From: Escherichia phage teqdroes | Direction: 5' to 3' (one strand) | Sequence record: NC_054932.1 | DNA length: 64,000 bases | Part shown: in pieces, positions 9,423 to 60,499 of the stretch | How positions within the stretch are numbered: position 1 is the stretch's first letter | How the letters are laid out: each line of letters opens with the position of its first letter | Translations under genes and position numbers: made by a program | The notes under the pieces: model-generated | The model's input: the letters and a program-made list of their open reading frames with translations, nothing else | Told to the model about the DNA's origin: nothing | Database searches by the model: none

Positions 9423-10103
9423 ATGATAGATAAAGATTATATTGCAGAGCTGAAGGCTCTTGATGATAATAAAGAAGCTAAAGCTAAACTAGCTGAATAT
9501 GCTGAACAGTTTGGTATAAAGGTCAAAAAGAATAAATCTTTTGATAATATCGTTGTTGATATTGAAGAAGCCCTCCAGAAGCTCGCTAGTGAACCTATGC
9601 CAGAGACTGATGGGTTATCTATTAAAGACTTAATTGATGCTGCTGATGCCGCAGAGGGATTAAAATATGACGATGAAGAAGTCAATCCAGAAGCAGCACT
9701 TCTGATTGATTCTCCAGTTAAATCTGACATTAAAATTGAAGTAGTAGAAACGGATAAAATTCCTGAAAATACCGATGTTTTGATTGAAGATACTCCTTTT
9801 GTTGAAGAAAAATTCGAACAAGCTGTAGCTGAGATTATTGAATCTGAAAAGCCGTCTGTATTTACTCTTCCGGAAAACTTTAGCCCGAATCTTCAGTTGA
9901 TTGGAAAAAATCCAGGATTCTGCACTGTTCCTTGGTGGATTTATCAATGGATTGCTGAAACTCCGGATTGGAAATCTCACCCAACAAGTTTTGAGCATGC
10001 GTCAGCACACCAAACTTTATTTAGCTTAATTTATTACATTAACCGTGACGGATCAGTTTTAATTCGTGAAACACGCAATTCTTCTTTCGTAACATTAAAA
10101 TAA
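9423..10103 (+). CDS. inh: Inh, inhibitor of prohead protease gp21
   Basis: 226-aa ORF next to hoc, as in T4. Confidence 0.75.
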   Translation: MIDKDYIAELKALDDNKEAKAKLAEYAEQFGIKVKKNKSFDNIVVDIEEALQKLASEPMPETDGLSIKDLIDAADAAEGLKYDDEEVNPEAALLIDSPVKSDIKIEVVETDKIPENTDVLIEDTPFVEEKFEQAVAEIIESEKPSVFTLPENFSPNLQLIGKNPGFCTVPWWIYQWIAETPDWKSHPTSFEHASAHQTLFSLIYYINRDGSVLIRETRNSSFVTLK

Positions 10104-47945: not shown

Positions 47946-48018
47946 TGGGAATTAGCCAAGTTGGTAAGGCACTGGATTTTGATTCCAGGATGCAAAGGTT
48001 CGAGTCCTTTATTCCCAG
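47946..48018 (+). tRNA. tRNA-Gln: tRNA-Gln (anticodon UUG)
   Basis: Cloverleaf folded by hand; acceptor TGGGAAT/ATTCCCA; CCA not encoded. Confidence 0.75.
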
Positions 48019-48019
48019 C

Positions 48020-48106
48020 GCGAGAATGGTCAAATTGGTAAAGGCACAGCACTTAAAATGCTGCGGAATGATTTCCTTGTGGGTTCGAGTCCCACTTCTC
48101 GCACCA
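48020..48106 (+). tRNA. tRNA-Leu: tRNA-Leu (anticodon UAA), long variable arm, CCA encoded
   Basis: Cloverleaf folded by hand; acceptor GCGAGAA/TTCTCGC. Confidence 0.75.
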
Positions 48107-48111
48107 AATTT

Positions 48112-48185
<74 letters not shown>

Positions 48186-48231
48186 ATTTATGACTCGTCG
48201 TGAGACGCTCAGTTCTTTATTAGGGACTGAT

Positions 48232-48840
48232 ATGCATTTTTATCTTTATAAAATAACAAATAAAATTAATAATAAAATTTATATTGGTGTGCATTCTACC
48301 GAAAATTTAGATGATGGATATATGGGTTCTGGTAAATTATTAAAAAGAGCCCAAGACAAGTATGGTATAGAAAATTTCTCTAAAGAAATATTAGAGTATT
48401 TTGATGATAAAGAATCTATGCTTGAAGCCGAGAAAAATATTGTCACAGAAGAGTTTTTAAATAGACCAGATGTGTATAATTTAAAACTTGGCGGAGAAGG
48501 TGGATGGGACCATATAAATAATTATCCTATGACAGATCAGCAACGCGAATTAATTTCATTGGGTGTTAAAAAGGCACATTCTAACGGAAAATTAAAAGGA
48601 TGGTCTTCAAATGGATTAATGAAGAATGGCTTTGCTGGTAAAAATCATTCTCAAGAAGCTAAACGTAAAATAGCAAAAGCAAACGAAGCAAAAGTTTCTG
48701 CGGATGAAAGAAAAAGAAGAATAGAAATTTCTAAATTATATGATTTTTCTAAGCGTGGTGAATTATCTAAATATGCTAAGCATATTGGCGTAAGTCATAC
48801 TCAAGCAAAAAGAATTCTAAATCAAATTAACAATATATAA
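48232..48840 (+). mobile_element. segB: GIY-YIG homing endonuclease (SegB-like) inside the tRNA cluster
   Basis: FYLYKITNKINNKIYIGVH...YMGSG GIY-YIG motif; track ORF opens at 48190 but ATG 48232 has an AGGGA ribosome-binding site. Confidence 0.75.
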
Positions 48841-48846
48841 ATATTT

Positions 48847-48936
48847 GGAGGCGTGGCAGAGTGGTTTAATGCACCGGTCTTGAAAACCGGCAGTCGCTCC
48901 GGCGACTCATAGGTTCAAATCCTATCGCCTCCGCCA
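48847..48936 (+). tRNA. tRNA-Ser: tRNA-Ser (anticodon UGA), long variable arm, CCA encoded
   Basis: Cloverleaf folded by hand. Confidence 0.75.
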
Positions 48937-48942
48937 GTTTTT

Positions 48943-49018
48943 GCTGATTTAGCTCAGTAGGTAGAGCACCTCACTTGTAATGAGGACGTCGGCGGTTCGA
49001 TTCCGTCAATCAGCACCA
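48943..49018 (+). tRNA. tRNA-Thr: tRNA-Thr (anticodon UGU), CCA encoded
   Basis: Cloverleaf folded by hand. Confidence 0.75.
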
Positions 49019-49019
49019 A

Positions 49020-49094
49020 GGCCCTGTAGCTGGAAGGTTCAAGCAAGCGACTCATAATCGCCAGATGGTGGTTCAATTCCACCCAGGGCCACCA
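49020..49094 (+). tRNA. tRNA with CAU anticodon (Ile2/lysidine-type or Met)
   Basis: Cloverleaf folded by hand; identity between Ile(CAU) and Met cannot be decided from sequence alone. Confidence 0.6.
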
Positions 49095-49106
49095 AATTAT
49101 GAATTA

Positions 49107-49193
49107 GGGGAGTTATCCCGTAGAGGTAGCGGTGTGGACTGTAAATTCATTGTCATTGCGACTCGGGTGGTTCGACTCCACCACTCCCCACCA
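49107..49193 (+). tRNA. tRNA-Tyr: tRNA-Tyr (anticodon GUA), type II long variable arm
   Basis: 87 nt with CCA; anticodon loop CTGTAAA; T-arm GGTGG-TTCGACT-CCACC; acceptor GGGGAGT/ACTCCCC. Confidence 0.55.
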
Positions 49194-49197
49194 ATTT

Positions 49198-49272
49198 GGA
49201 TGTGTAGCTCAATGGTAGAGCGATCGCCTGTTAAGCGATTGGTTATAGGTTCGAATCCTATCACGTCCGCCA
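49198..49272 (+). tRNA. tRNA-Asn: tRNA-Asn (anticodon GUU)
   Basis: Cloverleaf folded by hand; anticodon loop CTGTTAA. Confidence 0.6.
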
Positions 49273-49386
49273 AATTTGTGACAACTGTCACATTAATATC
49301 TACTTGACGCGATTATAGGGGTTGAACTGATCACTCTTCTCTTAATTTCGTGTGAAGACATCTTGATTGTTGGAGTAGGTATTAAT

Positions 49387-49462
49387 GTGGCCGTAGTTCA
49401 GTTGGTAGAACTCGAGATTGTGATTCTCGTAGTCATGGGTTCGACTCCCATCGGTCACCCCA
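49387..49462 (+). tRNA. tRNA-His: tRNA-His (anticodon GUG)
   Basis: Cloverleaf folded by hand; anticodon loop TTGTGAT. Confidence 0.6.
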
Positions 49463-49466
49463 ATTA

Positions 49467-49542
49467 CGGGGCATAGCTCAGAAGGAAGAGCAAGGACCTT
49501 CTAAGTCCTAGGTCGTAGGTTCGATCCCTACTGCCTCGACCA
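49467..49542 (+). tRNA. tRNA-Arg: tRNA-Arg (anticodon UCU)
   Basis: Cloverleaf folded by hand; anticodon loop CTTCTAA. Confidence 0.7.
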
Positions 49543-50294: not shown

Positions 50295-50768
50295 ATGAAA
50301 TCATATGCTCAATTTTTAAATGAAGCGGTGTTAAATGAAGCATCTAGCACCGAAATTCAAGCTGTCGCAAAAGCAGCCATTGCCGCGGGTAAATATTCCT
50401 ATAAAGATGCTTCCGATGAATCACGATTCCAATTTGCTCGTGATATGAAAGCCGAAGGATTTACAGGGAATGCAGTTAGTATGGCCTGGAAAAGTTTAGT
50501 TGCTACTGGCGCTGCTTTTGCAAAGGCTTCAGGTAAACCTGCTCCTAAAGCAGATCCTAAAGCTACACAAGAAAAAAATATTGTTAAAGGAATTATCTCC
50601 AAATATGAAGCTATCCTTAAAGAGCTTTTAGTAATCAAAACTGAAGGTCAAAAGTTAGCTCGTGCTTATAGTTTCAAAGATAACCCACATGCTCACTCTC
50701 TTGAGTATGTTGAAGACATCCAAAAAATTATTAAAGACCGCATTTGGTCTGCTAAACAAATCAAATAA
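50295..50768 (+). CDS. internal-protein-like protein (157 aa) with capsid-targeting-like N-terminus MKSYAQFLNEA
   Basis: N-terminus resembles the T4 internal-protein targeting sequence with L-x-E sites; bracketed by homologous terminators. Confidence 0.5.
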   Translation: MKSYAQFLNEAVLNEASSTEIQAVAKAAIAAGKYSYKDASDESRFQFARDMKAEGFTGNAVSMAWKSLVATGAAFAKASGKPAPKADPKATQEKNIVKGIISKYEAILKELLVIKTEGQKLARAYSFKDNPHAHSLEYVEDIQKIIKDRIWSAKQIK

Positions 50769-51665: not shown

Positions 51666-51696
51666 GTTTACAATCTATTAAAACGTGATATTATCT
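51666..51696 (+). promoter_or_regulatory. early promoter (GTTTAC ... GTGATATTAT)
   Basis: Read from sequence. Confidence 0.5.
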
Positions 51697-52315: not shown

Positions 52316-52356
52316 TGATAAGGGGCTTCGGCCCCTATTACTTGGAGTAAATAGGA

Positions 52357-52965
52357 ATGAAAATGCAAAGTGATTTCAATTCAATGTTTGAAGAATTCCA
52401 AAGACAAGTTGATGTTCCAGACCAATTATTAAATGCTCTTAAACGTATGGCAGAAGGACGTAATTATTATTGGGGTTCTTCATATGAAACTGATGAAAGT
52501 CTTTCTGGAAGATTTTCTAGAGGTAAAAAGTCTTTAATACGTCCTGGAATACTTATTAACAGTATTGAATCAATTCATTCATTGACATGTGATTTTGATG
52601 TTGAATTTACTGATTTCATTTCTCCTGAATGGTCAGTTTGTTATTTAAACGACGATTTTGATTATCTCGGTGTTTATAGTTTAAGTGATGCATGGTTTAA
52701 ACGTAATTTACAAAAGTCAAATTTATTTTATATTGATACTACTGTAAAATTTCGGGGCAAGAAATATTTCTTTACTCTTATAGTTGATTCTGAAACTAAG
52801 CATGAAAATAAGCGTATTCTTAGTAAAAAGAATATCTTAACTATTGTTGATGATCTTTTTGATAAATTCGTGGAAAATCCTAGTTTTGAAAGCGATTTAT
52901 TACTAGAAAAATTTGTTAAGGAATGTAGAGAATATGTCAAAGCCATCAATGTATCTTCCAAGTAA
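52357..52965 (+). CDS. hypothetical protein, first member of the coupled tandem array
   Basis: 202-aa ORF; C-terminus FVKECREYV carries the shared junction motif. Confidence 0.5.
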   Translation: MKMQSDFNSMFEEFQRQVDVPDQLLNALKRMAEGRNYYWGSSYETDESLSGRFSRGKKSLIRPGILINSIESIHSLTCDFDVEFTDFISPEWSVCYLNDDFDYLGVYSLSDAWFKRNLQKSNLFYIDTTVKFRGKKYFFTLIVDSETKHENKRILSKKNILTIVDDLFDKFVENPSFESDLLLEKFVKECREYVKAINVSSK

Positions 52966-53326
52966 ACCCTTAAAGTATGAATTAAAGCGCCAGCTAATTT
53001 CTACTGATGTATTAATAGGTCCTGTAATAGCTGTATCATTTGTAATTCTACTGGGGGTTGGAATAGTTATAGATGTTATGACTGATATTGAATCTAATAT
53101 AATATTTGCGTCAACATTAATTCTTCCAATGATAGTTCCATTTTTATTAATACCTGTAAATTGGGTAGGATACTGGTATCAAGGAAGGCATTATCGTAAA
53201 CGCGTACGTGATTGGAAAGCACAGTGTAAAAAGATTAAAAAGGAACATCAGCTTAAACTTGCTGCGTATGAATTTGATGAAATTATGAAATTTGTTAAGG
53301 AATCACGATGCAAAAGCCAAAACTAA
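52934..53326 (+). CDS. predicted membrane protein (two transmembrane segments)
   Basis: ATG 52934 after AAGGAA; track ORF begins upstream at TTG; overlaps the previous ORF end. Confidence 0.5.
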   Translation: MSKPSMYLPSKPLKYELKRQLISTDVLIGPVIAVSFVILLGVGIVIDVMTDIESNIIFASTLILPMIVPFLLIPVNWVGYWYQGRHYRKRVRDWKAQCKKIKKEHQLKLAAYEFDEIMKFVKESRCKSQN

Positions 53327-53670
53327 ATAAAGTCAAATATTCGCTTCCTGAGTCATTTTTAATTTTTGCTGTGGCGTTGGCTGCAGCTCTTGCGGGTAGT
53401 CTTTTTGGATTGTTAATTGACTGTCTTATTTTAAACATTGACGGCACAGTAAATATAATAGAAGTTTGGAGTGAACTTCACTATACTAAAATTATTTCAT
53501 TATTTTCATTCTTTGGTACCATGTTATATTTTCATTATGATAATTTTAAAATAAATTGGCAAAGAAAAAAAGATTACAAAATACAATTAAAGGAATATAA
53601 TAGCTACATGTCTTATATTGAAAAAGAATCAATGGAAGAGTTTGTGAGTGATTGCAGGAAAATCAAATGA
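53308..53670 (+). CDS. predicted membrane protein
   Basis: 120-aa ORF with hydrophobic core; C-terminus DCRKIK. Confidence 0.5.
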   Translation: MQKPKLNKVKYSLPESFLIFAVALAAALAGSLFGLLIDCLILNIDGTVNIIEVWSELHYTKIISLFSFFGTMLYFHYDNFKINWQRKKDYKIQLKEYNSYMSYIEKESMEEFVSDCRKIK

Positions 53671-54155
53671 TTTTAAAAACTCGCTGGTATGATTTAGATG
53701 ACGGGGATGATGGCATTTCAGTTGATAGAGTTGACTGGAATGGCTGTTCCGAAGATATGAAAAATTTGCTGATTAGGGAGTTTAGAATGGGATATCAACC
53801 AGTTAAGCCATCTACTGCAACAGATGATAAATTCGTGTGTATTCATAATGGTCGCGCTAAATTAACGAACGCTGATTGGTTCACAGATAAAATTATGATT
53901 CTGTGGTACATTATTAGTTTTCCTGTGACATCATTTGTATTTTGCTTCTTTGGAGAAAGTCCAGTAGACAGAACGGGAGATTGGATTATTTTAACCATAC
54001 TTGTTAATATTTTTACAGCAGCAATACTATCTGGGATATGGTACACGTTCATTGAAATGCCATGGCGTTTACGCAGACAACAAAAGATTTTTGATGAAAA
54101 GAAATATACCCAAAATTTAAATAGCTTTATCACTGAATGCAGGAAATTAAAATGA
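53667..54155 (+). CDS. predicted membrane protein
   Basis: ATG overlaps the previous stop (ATGA); C-terminus ECRKLK. Confidence 0.5.
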   Translation: MILKTRWYDLDDGDDGISVDRVDWNGCSEDMKNLLIREFRMGYQPVKPSTATDDKFVCIHNGRAKLTNADWFTDKIMILWYIISFPVTSFVFCFFGESPVDRTGDWIILTILVNIFTAAILSGIWYTFIEMPWRLRRQQKIFDEKKYTQNLNSFITECRKLK

Positions 54156-54592
54156 AAACATTATCAGCTGGTATTATCTTTATGACAGAAGATAAAGATT
54201 TATTTATGGGTCGGGTTACTGGTTCTCGTAAGCCTGGAATGATGGCACATCGCTGGGATATTCCAAAAGGTCGTGTAGAATGTTCTGATTTGAGCGCATT
54301 AGATGCAGCACGAAGAGAATGTTTAGAAGAGACCGGTTTTAGCAATTATAATCCAGACCTTCTAGAAGACCTAGGTGTATTTAAATATTCTAGTAATAAA
54401 GACTTACAGTTATTTTATTATACGATTCCAGTAGAGCATGAGATGTTCAGAAATTGCCATTGCGAGTCTTATTTTGAAAATAAAGATGGCGTTATGATTC
54501 CAGAGATGGACGCTTTTGCTCTTATTCCTCGTACTCAGTGGCAATATGTGATGGGTCCTTCACTTTACCGAATAATGAACAACCTCTTTTAA
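54137..54592 (+). CDS. nudE: Nudix hydrolase NudE
   Basis: Nudix box GRVECSDLSALDAARRECLEETGF; alternative start at 54152 (ATGA overlap). Confidence 0.8.
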   Translation: MQEIKMKTLSAGIIFMTEDKDLFMGRVTGSRKPGMMAHRWDIPKGRVECSDLSALDAARRECLEETGFSNYNPDLLEDLGVFKYSSNKDLQLFYYTIPVEHEMFRNCHCESYFENKDGVMIPEMDAFALIPRTQWQYVMGPSLYRIMNNLF

Positions 54593-55123
<531 letters not shown>

Positions 55124-55608: not shown

Positions 55609-56082
55609 ATGAAAACATATCAAGAATTTATCACTGAAGCAGCTATTAATTCTCAAATTATTGCTGAATCTTTTACTGATCTTTTGAAATTTAAAAAAGG
55701 TCAAAAAATCACTGCTGTATTGGATGATGGTACAGAAGTTGAGATGGATGTACAGGGATATAATTATGCAGTAGATGGAAAACTGTATAATAAATCTCAT
55801 GCTAAATTTGATTCATTTGACGACTTTGTTAATACAGTTGAAGATGAAAAAACTCGTAGATCCATTGCAACTGGTGATGCTAAGGTTCTTATGGCACATG
55901 GTCATGAACGCATTCGCGCTAAACAGAATAAAATGGGTGAAGATAATTTTGCATTAGTTGGTTATCAATCTGGTAAACAAACTTATGGCTATCAACGTAC
56001 TGCTACCATGTATAACAAAAATGGTAAAATTGCCTTTGTGAATAGTAAAGGTTCTATTCAGTACGTTAAATCGTTCAAATAA
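55609..56082 (+). CDS. internal-protein-like protein (157 aa) with canonical capsid-targeting N-terminus MKTYQEFITEA
   Basis: N-terminal 11 residues match the T4 internal-protein targeting sequence; AAGGA ribosome-binding site. Confidence 0.6.
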   Translation: MKTYQEFITEAAINSQIIAESFTDLLKFKKGQKITAVLDDGTEVEMDVQGYNYAVDGKLYNKSHAKFDSFDDFVNTVEDEKTRRSIATGDAKVLMAHGHERIRAKQNKMGEDNFALVGYQSGKQTYGYQRTATMYNKNGKIAFVNSKGSIQYVKSFK

Positions 56083-60112: not shown

Positions 60113-60296
60113 TCCTAAAAACAAAGCAGAAATTATTCGTCAATGGGAACGCATTTGCCGTACTAAATGCCCAATTAATAGTCCACATGATGTAGATAAA
60201 GACTATATTGGAACATTCGTTGAATATACCTTTATTGATAGGAAAGGTCGTAAACAACATGTAGAAGAATATTGCTTAAAGGTTACATGGTTATGA
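60084..60296 (+). CDS. hypothetical protein
   Basis: 70-aa ORF overlapping the previous ORF end. Confidence 0.4.
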   Translation: MKVHYPHPFDPKNKAEIIRQWERICRTKCPINSPHDVDKDYIGTFVEYTFIDRKGRKQHVEEYCLKVTWL

Positions 60297-60499
60297 GCCA
60301 AACTAGTATTCTTAAAAATGCTCATTGTGAAAAGTGTAAATGGCCGGTTGTTTTTGCTTTATGTAATGATGAAATGGCTTGCGATTTCGATTATTGGTGC
60401 TATTGTTCTAATAAAGGATGCATCAATCATAAAGGTGAAGGATTTTATTCAGGATTTTATCCTTATCCTGATTTCGTTAAAGAAGGTAAACCAAAATGA
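60287..60499 (+). CDS. small Cys-rich protein (possible zinc-binding)
   Basis: CEKCKW...CNDEMACDFDYWCYCSNKGC; start 60287 or 60293. Confidence 0.45.
   Translation: MVMSQTSILKNAHCEKCKWPVVFALCNDEMACDFDYWCYCSNKGCINHKGEGFYSGFYPYPDFVKEGKPK

Follow-up and report, generated by a model that had tools for sequence, protein, structure and literature searches.

Four consecutive genes of Escherichia phage teqdroes (sequence record NC_054932.1), orthologous to e.5, e.4, e.3 and e.2 of phage T4, encode dissimilar proteins that all carry near the C-terminus the same short peptide, with the consensus Φ-x-x-F-[IV]-x-[ED]-[C/S]-R (hereafter the tail). We examined these genes in a stretch of 64,000 nucleotides (nt) of the phage genome (hereafter the window), where they form an array with very compact junctions and where the tail lies at the border of each cassette. 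The similarity of the tails is real and not due to chance, and the comparisons below indicate that the tail is retained through selection on the protein rather than on RNA or DNA. The best overall explanation, which we regard as narrowly probable, is that the tail is a shared docking module and that the junctions serve as in-frame recombination arms. The array genes themselves are already known; the tail and its coincidence with the cassette borders appear to be undescribed. We found no description of the tail peptide in the searchable literature, and a literature search by name for e.2 to e.5 returned nothing. T4 is the best-studied virulent phage, and a tail shared by dissimilar neighbors offers a concrete handle on e.2 to e.5.

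A C-terminal tail confined to the array

The first-pass annotation, made from the letters of the sequence alone, had recognized four consecutive open reading frames (ORFs) at these positions, and the coordinates agree with ours (Table 1). It had also described a terminal peptide common to all four. This part stands, as the products carry LEKFVKECR (e.5), IMKFVKESR (e.4), MEEFVSDCR (e.3) and LNSFITECR (e.2), but the e.5 product does not end with KECREYV as was thought: it extends eight residues (KAINVSSK) further. To the pattern F[IV].[ED]C[RK], 3 of the 195 six-frame ORFs in the window gave a match, all of them array members and all within the last 22 residues. The same pattern matched 3 of the 802 six-frame ORFs (77,176 amino acids, aa) in the complete T4 genome, and these are again the same array genes and no others. 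By chance, a six-residue motif of this kind is expected about 5e5 times per 2e11 residues. The tail peptide is absent from 43 other closely spaced gene pairs of the window.

Among the 47 coupled gene pairs in the window, the sole other tail-like C-terminus is DFVKEGKPK, found in a 70-aa ORF similar to RB32ORF111c (60287-60499). This ORF ends with PDFVKEGKPK, overlaps the next gene by ATGA, and is without Cys-Arg.

Conservation of the tail as protein

The codons of the tail vary while its amino acids are kept. Among 46 distinct tail DNA sequences, a set that was collected with a loose motif and includes about four chance ORFs, Cys is encoded by TGT in 18 and by TGC in 16, and Arg by CGT in 13, AGG in 11, AGA in 8, CGC in 5 and CGA in 4. 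The tail is also kept in the orthologs of Mosigvirus, Gaprivervirus and Dhakavirus and of two more distant T4-like phages (L043, and L044, which is phage EcS1), with the remaining protein at 20-50% identity. Across nine e.2 orthologs, which are 24-48% identical to e.2 of the window except for one close relative at 91%, F154, I155, C158 and R159 make up four of the eight invariant columns. An exhaustive profile search of 1.84 billion protein representatives matched 24 e.2 clusters, and [FW]-I-x-x-C-R stands at the end of all 13 full-length distant representatives that were fetched out of these 24 matches.

The place of the ribosome-binding site relative to the tail is not constant. In the window, the Shine-Dalgarno (SD) sequence of the next gene is formed by the K-E codons in the e.5 and e.4 tails and by the R-K codons in the e.3 and e.2 tails. 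In L043 (9724-9990), the peptide end FIKSCRK is followed by the stop codon and then by AGGAG-N5-ATG, and in the e.5-type gene of Gaprivervirus and Dhakavirus the nearest ATG preceded by an SD sequence is 22 nt past the tail. Because synonymous change is free and the tail persists where the ribosome-binding site lies elsewhere, these results argue for selection at the protein level. The first-pass annotation had allowed that the C-terminal similarity might be nothing but the embedded ribosome-binding site without homology between the proteins; given the conservation of the amino acids, this account does not explain the shared peptide.

Layout and expression of the array

The source DNA belongs to Tequatrovirus, and the 1.8-kb interval is 98% identical to that of phage KAW1E185 and 96-97% identical to those of RB3 and RB14. 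Both position and profile matches identify the four ORFs as e.5, e.4, e.3 and e.2; nudE comes next and then the lysozyme gene e, and the gene order between e.6 and nudE is the same as in T4, RB14, RB51 and T2. All four products have full-length PHROG matches (e.5, phrog_2607, E = 5e-108; e.4, phrog_2604, E = 2e-69; e.3, phrog_2330, E = 2e-60; e.2, phrog_2203, E = 3e-79), which fall in four separate PHROGs, all without assigned function. Relatives bear the precomputed Pfam identifiers PF26876 (e.5) and PF26896 (e.2), neither of which is in the Pfam copy that we searched. As the first-pass annotation noted, the last three ORFs carry transmembrane (TM) segments, two each in e.4 and e.2 and one clear plus one weaker segment in e.3. 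The N-terminal domain of e.2 is conserved at W7, DDG, DW and C27, and every relative returned in a homolog search with e.3 was at least 67% identical. The first-pass annotation had suggested superinfection exclusion, lysis timing or anti-defense as possible functions. Profiles from Pfam, NCBIfam and PHROG gave no functional match and no homology of the array proteins to Imm, Sp, RI or T holin-type proteins, the known T4 membrane proteins of superinfection exclusion and lysis control. The single weak match was that of e.4 to the Bfi1 immunity family, at 18 bits against a cut-off of 100, a level that fits composition bias of the TM segments. Several public records (MZ502379, OK272473, OP870144) name e.3 or e.4 'sulfurtransferase' and once 'DNA primase', and the Pfam, NCBIfam and PHROG results support neither name.

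Successive genes of the run overlap by 32, 19, 4 and 4 nt, with AAGGAA or AGGAAA located 5-10 nt 5' of each downstream ATG and the SD sequence in the upstream coding sequence (CDS), the arrangement of a translationally coupled operon. The SD sequence and ATG of each next gene are thus found inside or just past the last codons of the preceding one, as had been proposed, and genuine ATGA overlaps occur at 53667 and 54152. The array is a compact run of early accessory genes that continues into nudE, and its members are probably co-translated. The first-pass annotation had also called these junctions recoded. This label is wrong: we found no frameshift or readthrough signal, every array ORF has its own ATG and SD sequence, and all records examined list its orthologs as genes of their own. 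Compared with shuffled sequence, no RNA structure was detected at the junctions (z-scores +1.4 to -1.1). Because the junction RNAs are no more structured than shuffles, coupling of the sequestration type is not indicated.

The idea that all junctions share one DNA sequence was likewise not upheld, since the comparison of junctions shows two repeat pairs. One is a perfect 16-mer, AAATTTGTTAAGGAAT, which occurs in the e.5 tail (52909-52924) and in the e.4 tail (53288-53303). The other is a 30-mer with 80% identity between the end of e.3 (53641-53670) and the end of e.2 (54126-54155), and none of the region's 17 direct-repeat families is longer. Continuation of the latter repeat for about 33 nt into the downstream genes (e.3 to e.2 and e.2 to nudE) is marginal (shuffle p = 0.001, with 1.2% of other gene starts equal). 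Sites resembling sigma-70 promoters number 28, against 20.1 +/- 4.4 in shuffles; the internal matches (up to 10 of 12) are at chance level, and no such match lies at the junctions themselves. The nearest strong early-promoter-like site is upstream of e.6, and no comparable site was found directly upstream of e.5. The hairpin between e.6 and e.5, which bounds the coupled run on its upstream side, may serve in RNA stability or processing and not as a terminator.

Table 1. Positions of the array genes, their tails and associated features (window coordinates unless a record is named)
Feature	Position	Strand	Description
e.5	52357..52965	+	202 aa; predicted soluble, no TM segment; first tail-bearing member; e.5 in RB14/T4 annotation
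e.5 tail	52903..52929	+	L183-R191, LEKFVKECR; internal AAGGAA is the likely SD sequence of e.4
e.4	52934..53326	+	130 aa; two TM segments, aa 31-49 and 56-74; 32-nt overlap with e.5
e.4 tail	53282..53308	+	I117-R125, IMKFVKESR, Ser replacing Cys; final base is the A of the e.3 ATG
e.3	53308..53670	+	120 aa; clear TM segment aa 19-37, weaker hydrophobic segment about aa 60-77; 19-nt overlap with e.4
e.3 tail	53632..53658	+	M109-R117, MEEFVSDCR; AGGAAA directly after is the SD sequence of e.2
e.2	53667..54155	+	162 aa; TM segments aa 76-94 and 106-124, C-terminal tail; 4-nt ATGA overlap with e.3
e.2 tail	54117..54143	+	L151-R159, LNSFITECR; AGGAAA is the SD sequence of nudE
nudE	54152..54592	+	Nudix hydrolase, PF00293, E = 2e-13; 4-nt ATGA overlap with e.2; no tail; closes the coupled run
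13-nt direct repeat	53035-53047 and 53930-53942		ATCATTTGTA(A/T)TT
Early-promoter-like site	51667..51694	+	TTTACA-16-TATTAT; nearest strong one, upstream of e.6
Hairpin between e.6 and e.5	52321..52336	+	G+C-rich GGGGCTTCGGCCCC, UUCG loop; no T-run on + strand; upstream edge of the coupled run
Second tandem array	L003 4731-5525; L007 3024-4283; L008 3030-4286; L043 5950-6993		in the block between e.3 and e.2

Loss, replacement and reassortment of cassettes

The array is not identical in all T4 relatives, and the earlier suggestion that it is modular and prone to recombination is borne out by the loss of individual members, by a large insert and by broken genes. T2 and L010 lack e.2, and their hybrid junction, gattgcagg followed by aaattaaaatga, consists of e.3 sequence through the shared TGCAGGAAA and of e.2-end sequence thereafter. 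Dhakavirus lacks e.4, and in its hybrid junction, gctaaagaggttcaaaATGgaacggcc, an e.5-type end is joined to e.4-end/e.3-start sequence over 16 nt of common SD-ATG sequence. In Mosigvirus, Gaprivervirus and Dhakavirus, 3-4.5 kb of other small genes lie between e.3 and e.2, including an additional tail-bearing membrane protein, RB69 ORF133 (...NFIKECRGK), and the 3.1-kb insert of Mosigvirus begins at the ATGA of e.3. The end-points of indels or replacements in T2/L010, Dhakavirus and Mosigvirus are therefore located in the conserved junction element. A natural in-frame chimera of 106 aa, consisting of the N-terminus of e.4 and the C-terminal half of e.2 (precomputed PF26873 and PF26896), is found in vB_EcoM-UFV05 (P0121).

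Individual phages also carry broken members: e.2 is split into pieces of 102 aa and 36 aa in T4 (L001, 67472-67960), e.5 is split into 145 and 92 aa in L010 (8636-9251), and an internal deletion in e.3 removes the TM region in L014 (about 9590-9700). The array genes are dispensable, at least in propagation hosts. In tblastn searches, about 497 Tequatrovirus records have e.3 and about 446 have e.2, which suggests that roughly one-tenth of the records are without e.2; this frequency rests on tblastn, as the megablast count of T2-type junctions was unclean (split matches were joined). Among nine Tequatrovirus genomes, divergent blocks in the TM and loop parts of e.4, e.3 and e.2 assort independently, and the junctions are conserved. 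Entropy is 0.44 and 0.37 in TM/loop regions versus 0.16 and 0.14 in tail regions, an approximately 2.5-fold difference.

The block between e.3 and e.2 in Mosigvirus, Gaprivervirus, Dhakavirus and L043 also holds a second tandem array of three to five small proteins (61-103 aa). These proteins end with G-x-W-[VI]-S-S-S-x-x-C-stop, followed by TAAGGAAAT..ATG, and thus have another junction-borne C-terminal motif.

Relationship of the protein bodies

In pairwise hhalign comparisons, most of the families align with one another over their last 9-25 columns at P values of 1e-5 to 2e-4; reversed controls give P >= 0.009. Similarity is weaker or falls short of significance where e.4 is paired with ORF133 (P = 1.6e-3), e.5 or e.2. 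The similarity between e.4 and e.3 spans the full length. When the last 24 columns were removed, e.4-e.3 retained P = 0.006 in a collinear alignment, and all other pairs were at P >= 0.03. The bodies of the e.5 type show no link to the membrane proteins in either hhalign or tail-less BLASTP, and e.5 of the T4 type and e.5 of the Gaprivervirus type have only 15 residues around the tail in common. The membrane members may be an old, fast-diverging family of tandem paralogs.

Shape of the tail and predicted topology

We aligned 25 tails from about 12 protein types on the Phe residue. The hydrophobic fraction at positions -3, 0, +1 and +4 from Phe is 0.92, 1.0, 1.0 and 0.96, and elsewhere it is at most 0.28; Lys or Arg occupies +5 in every tail and is frequent at +2 and +6. 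Residues spaced i, i+3, i+4, i+7 in this way make up the hydrophobic face of an amphipathic helix, and the tail shows both the periodicity and the basic flanks of helices of the MinD/FtsA type. AlphaFold2 (AF2) likewise draws the tail as a helix, though at low confidence, in e.5 at residues 180-196 and in e.2 as the end of a long helix that continues TM2. The tail is most likely a cytoplasmic amphipathic helix of the form hydrophobic(-3)-x-x-F-[IV]-x-x-C-[RK]. Because basic residues precede TM1 and follow TM2 (positive-inside rule), e.4, e.3 and e.2 are predicted to be two-TM inner-membrane proteins with N-in/C-in topology and cytoplasmic C-termini, and e.5 is predicted to be a soluble cytoplasmic protein.

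The top Foldseek matches of the low-confidence e.5 model in the PDB are small alarmone synthetases of equal length (RelP/RelQ), but with a TM-score of about 0.2 and E of about 0.009-0.01. The RelA_SpoT profile of Pfam does not match e.5, and this reading, which we rejected, is a lead at most, next to a Nudix gene.

Proposed function of tail and junctions

The tail is probably a docking helix by which the array products attach, at the inner membrane, to a single shared partner or to one another. The bodies ahead of the tail evolve fast, the TM and loop segments especially, and these segments probably face the host or a competitor. The start site of each gene lies in or just past the end of the preceding one. 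These junctions of tail and start are conserved and would therefore act as homology arms; recombination within them has probably removed, replaced and re-assorted individual cassettes in frame time and again. Convergence of all array products on a single partner is a directly testable prediction.

Several results weigh against this explanation. No match in Pfam, NCBIfam, PDB or PHROG function was found for the e.2 to e.5 products, and nothing there ties the tail to a partner. Lineages of e.4 have S, I, V or M in place of Cys, which is thus not universally required, and the family alignments are thin, with four to nine divergent lineages each. When the tails are left out, BLASTP still links a few of the two-TM bodies marginally (E of 1e-3 to 4e-4), which suggests an old family of paralogs; common descent and a role that is structural only could then account for the tail in the membrane proteins. 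Both AF2 models are of low confidence, with predicted local distance difference test (pLDDT) scores of 56 for e.5 and 62 for e.2 (helices 68-96 and 103-161), and too weak for fold assignment. Finally, the chimera of vB_EcoM-UFV05 is joined in the first TM segments of e.4 and e.2, at the 13-nt repeat (Table 1). Because this deletion used another microhomology, the junctions are favored but not exclusive deletion sites.

A bolder form of the docking explanation, to which we give little credence at present, is that the tail is a portable address label: any protein bearing it would be recruited to a single machine of the host or phage at the inner membrane, and new bodies could be spliced in frame onto the label through recombination inside its coding sequence. 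If this were true, the array would be an integrase-free cassette system in which one conserved peptide-coding junction would at once target the protein, start translation of the following gene and provide the arm for recombination, and the hypervariable TM/loop segments would be the surface of an arms race, for example against host defenses or competing phages.

Comparison with known systems

The closest described concept is the shuffling of promoter-early stem-loop (PeSL) cassettes, which mediate modular exchange in the hyperplastic regions of T4-type phages (Arbiol et al. 2010, PMC2839356; Comeau et al. 2014, PMC4122927). Petrov et al. 2010 (PMC2993671) state that no familiar signatures of mobile elements mark the points where laterally acquired DNA joins the genomes of T4 relatives. 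Like PeSLs, the array junctions are short conserved borders of variable accessory genes in T4-type phages, and they contain the end-points of indels and replacements as well as the SD sequence and start of the downstream gene. PeSLs are intergenic, with a sigma-70 promoter and a stem-loop terminator, whereas the array junctions are coding, have no stem-loop and conserve a peptide. The array would thus be a coding-sequence counterpart to PeSLs for in-frame gene exchange in the hyperplastic regions of T-even phages.

In classical rII deletion studies, T4 deletions reportedly fall between short direct repeats. The array is similar in that the losses of e.2 (T2 type) and e.4 (Dhakavirus) have hybrid end-points in 9-16 nt of shared sequence and in that the e.4-e.2 chimera of vB_EcoM-UFV05 is joined where a 13-nt repeat is located. 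In contrast to the rII case, the array repeats are working ends of genes, so that a cassette is lost precisely and in frame and the remaining genes are still intact and coupled; selection on the peptide preserves these repeats.

The internal-protein (ip) loci of T-even phages encode proteins with an N-terminal capsid-targeting sequence that directs them to the prohead and is cleaved by gp21. As in the array, unrelated bodies bear one short conserved terminal peptide, the gene content is polymorphic, and the genome neighborhood is the same. The ip signal is N-terminal, whereas the array tail is found at the C-terminus of early proteins of the membrane or cytoplasm and has an invariant Cys-Arg, which the ip signal lacks. 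Two ip-like genes in the window start with sequences of the capsid-targeting type (55609-56082, MKTYQEFITEA; 50295-50768, MKSYAQFLNEA). The F-I-T-E core of such a start resembles SFITE-CR of e.2, a likeness of only four to five residues.

Alternative explanations

MinD and FtsA are targeted to the membrane by C-terminal amphipathic helices, and the array tail could be an anchor of this kind at the membrane interface, which would fix the cytoplasmic ends of the TM proteins to the inner leaflet and bring e.5 to the membrane without any specific protein partner. The tail resembles these helices in its C-terminal position (at the end or nearly so in all members), its aromatic/hydrophobic face with basic flanks, strict at i, i+3, i+4 and i+7 with K/R at +2, +5 and +6, and its interchange of W and F, as W replaces F in several distant e.2 relatives (WIKGCRK, WIKRCRRD). 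General anchors exchange hydrophobic residues freely, whereas F/W, I/V, Cys and Arg of the tail are nearly invariant at about 25% identity, a far stricter conservation than that of the MinD/FtsA helices. Moreover, the hydrophobic face comprises just four residues, it is unusual for a surface that faces lipid to carry an invariant Cys, and the tail is also present on proteins that already have TM segments. We therefore consider a pure anchor doubtful.

It is less likely still that the tail is a functionless passenger of a DNA-level linker, a coding analog of PeSLs, kept alike by exchange or gene conversion. The hybrid junctions of the T2 type and of Dhakavirus do fall exactly at the repeats, the junction repeats include the longest direct repeat and the perfect 16-mer among the 17 families, and the alleles of neighboring cassettes assort independently, all of which speaks for such a linker. 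However, within a single genome the four junctions are not alike (TGT AGA / TCA CGA / TGC AGG), third positions vary freely among close relatives while the amino acids are constant, and the motif outlasts divergence beyond any DNA homology usable for recombination.

A very improbable role is that of a nascent peptide which modulates termination and re-initiation at the stop/start overlap and so tunes the stoichiometry of the array. In most junctions the tail is 0-8 nt from the next start, and tails of the e.3/e.2 type are the last 7-10 residues before AUGA termination, but e.5-type tails are 9-15 codons from the stop, the tail is conserved also where the next start is separate, and it is not known to match any arrest motif. 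Largely refuted is the view that the tail is an imprint of coupling, in which an AU-rich SD region (UUUAUUAAGGAAU...) read in frame yields F-I-K-E: K-E or E-E (AAGGAA, GAGGAA) is the SD sequence of the next gene in many junctions, with the ATG 0-10 nt after the Arg codon, and the unrelated coupled gene noted above ends with DFVKEGKPK, but the SD sequence lies in varying codons of the motif and elsewhere after the stop or 20 nt downstream, Cys-Arg is encoded by 2 x 5 codons, and the other 43 coupled junctions lack the peptide.

Neighboring features

Two TATAAATA late-promoter motifs are located directly 5' of the lysozyme gene e (54595-54602 and 54608-54615); the coupled early run therefore stops at nudE, and e has its own late signal. 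At 54137-54152, an ATG in frame with nudE arises within the Glu and Cys codons (GAA TGC) that belong to the e.2 tail. The T4 RefSeq record uses this ATG as the start of nudE (151 aa), and other records use the ATGA (146 aa); of the two, only the ATGA start has an SD sequence (AGGAAA). Farther upstream lies a tRNA cluster (47946-49542); over the stretch examined, segB was not found between its tRNAs. This cluster has 10 tRNAs (Gln, Leu, Gly, Ser, Thr, Met/Ile-CAU, Tyr, Asn, His and Arg), compared with 8 annotated in T4.

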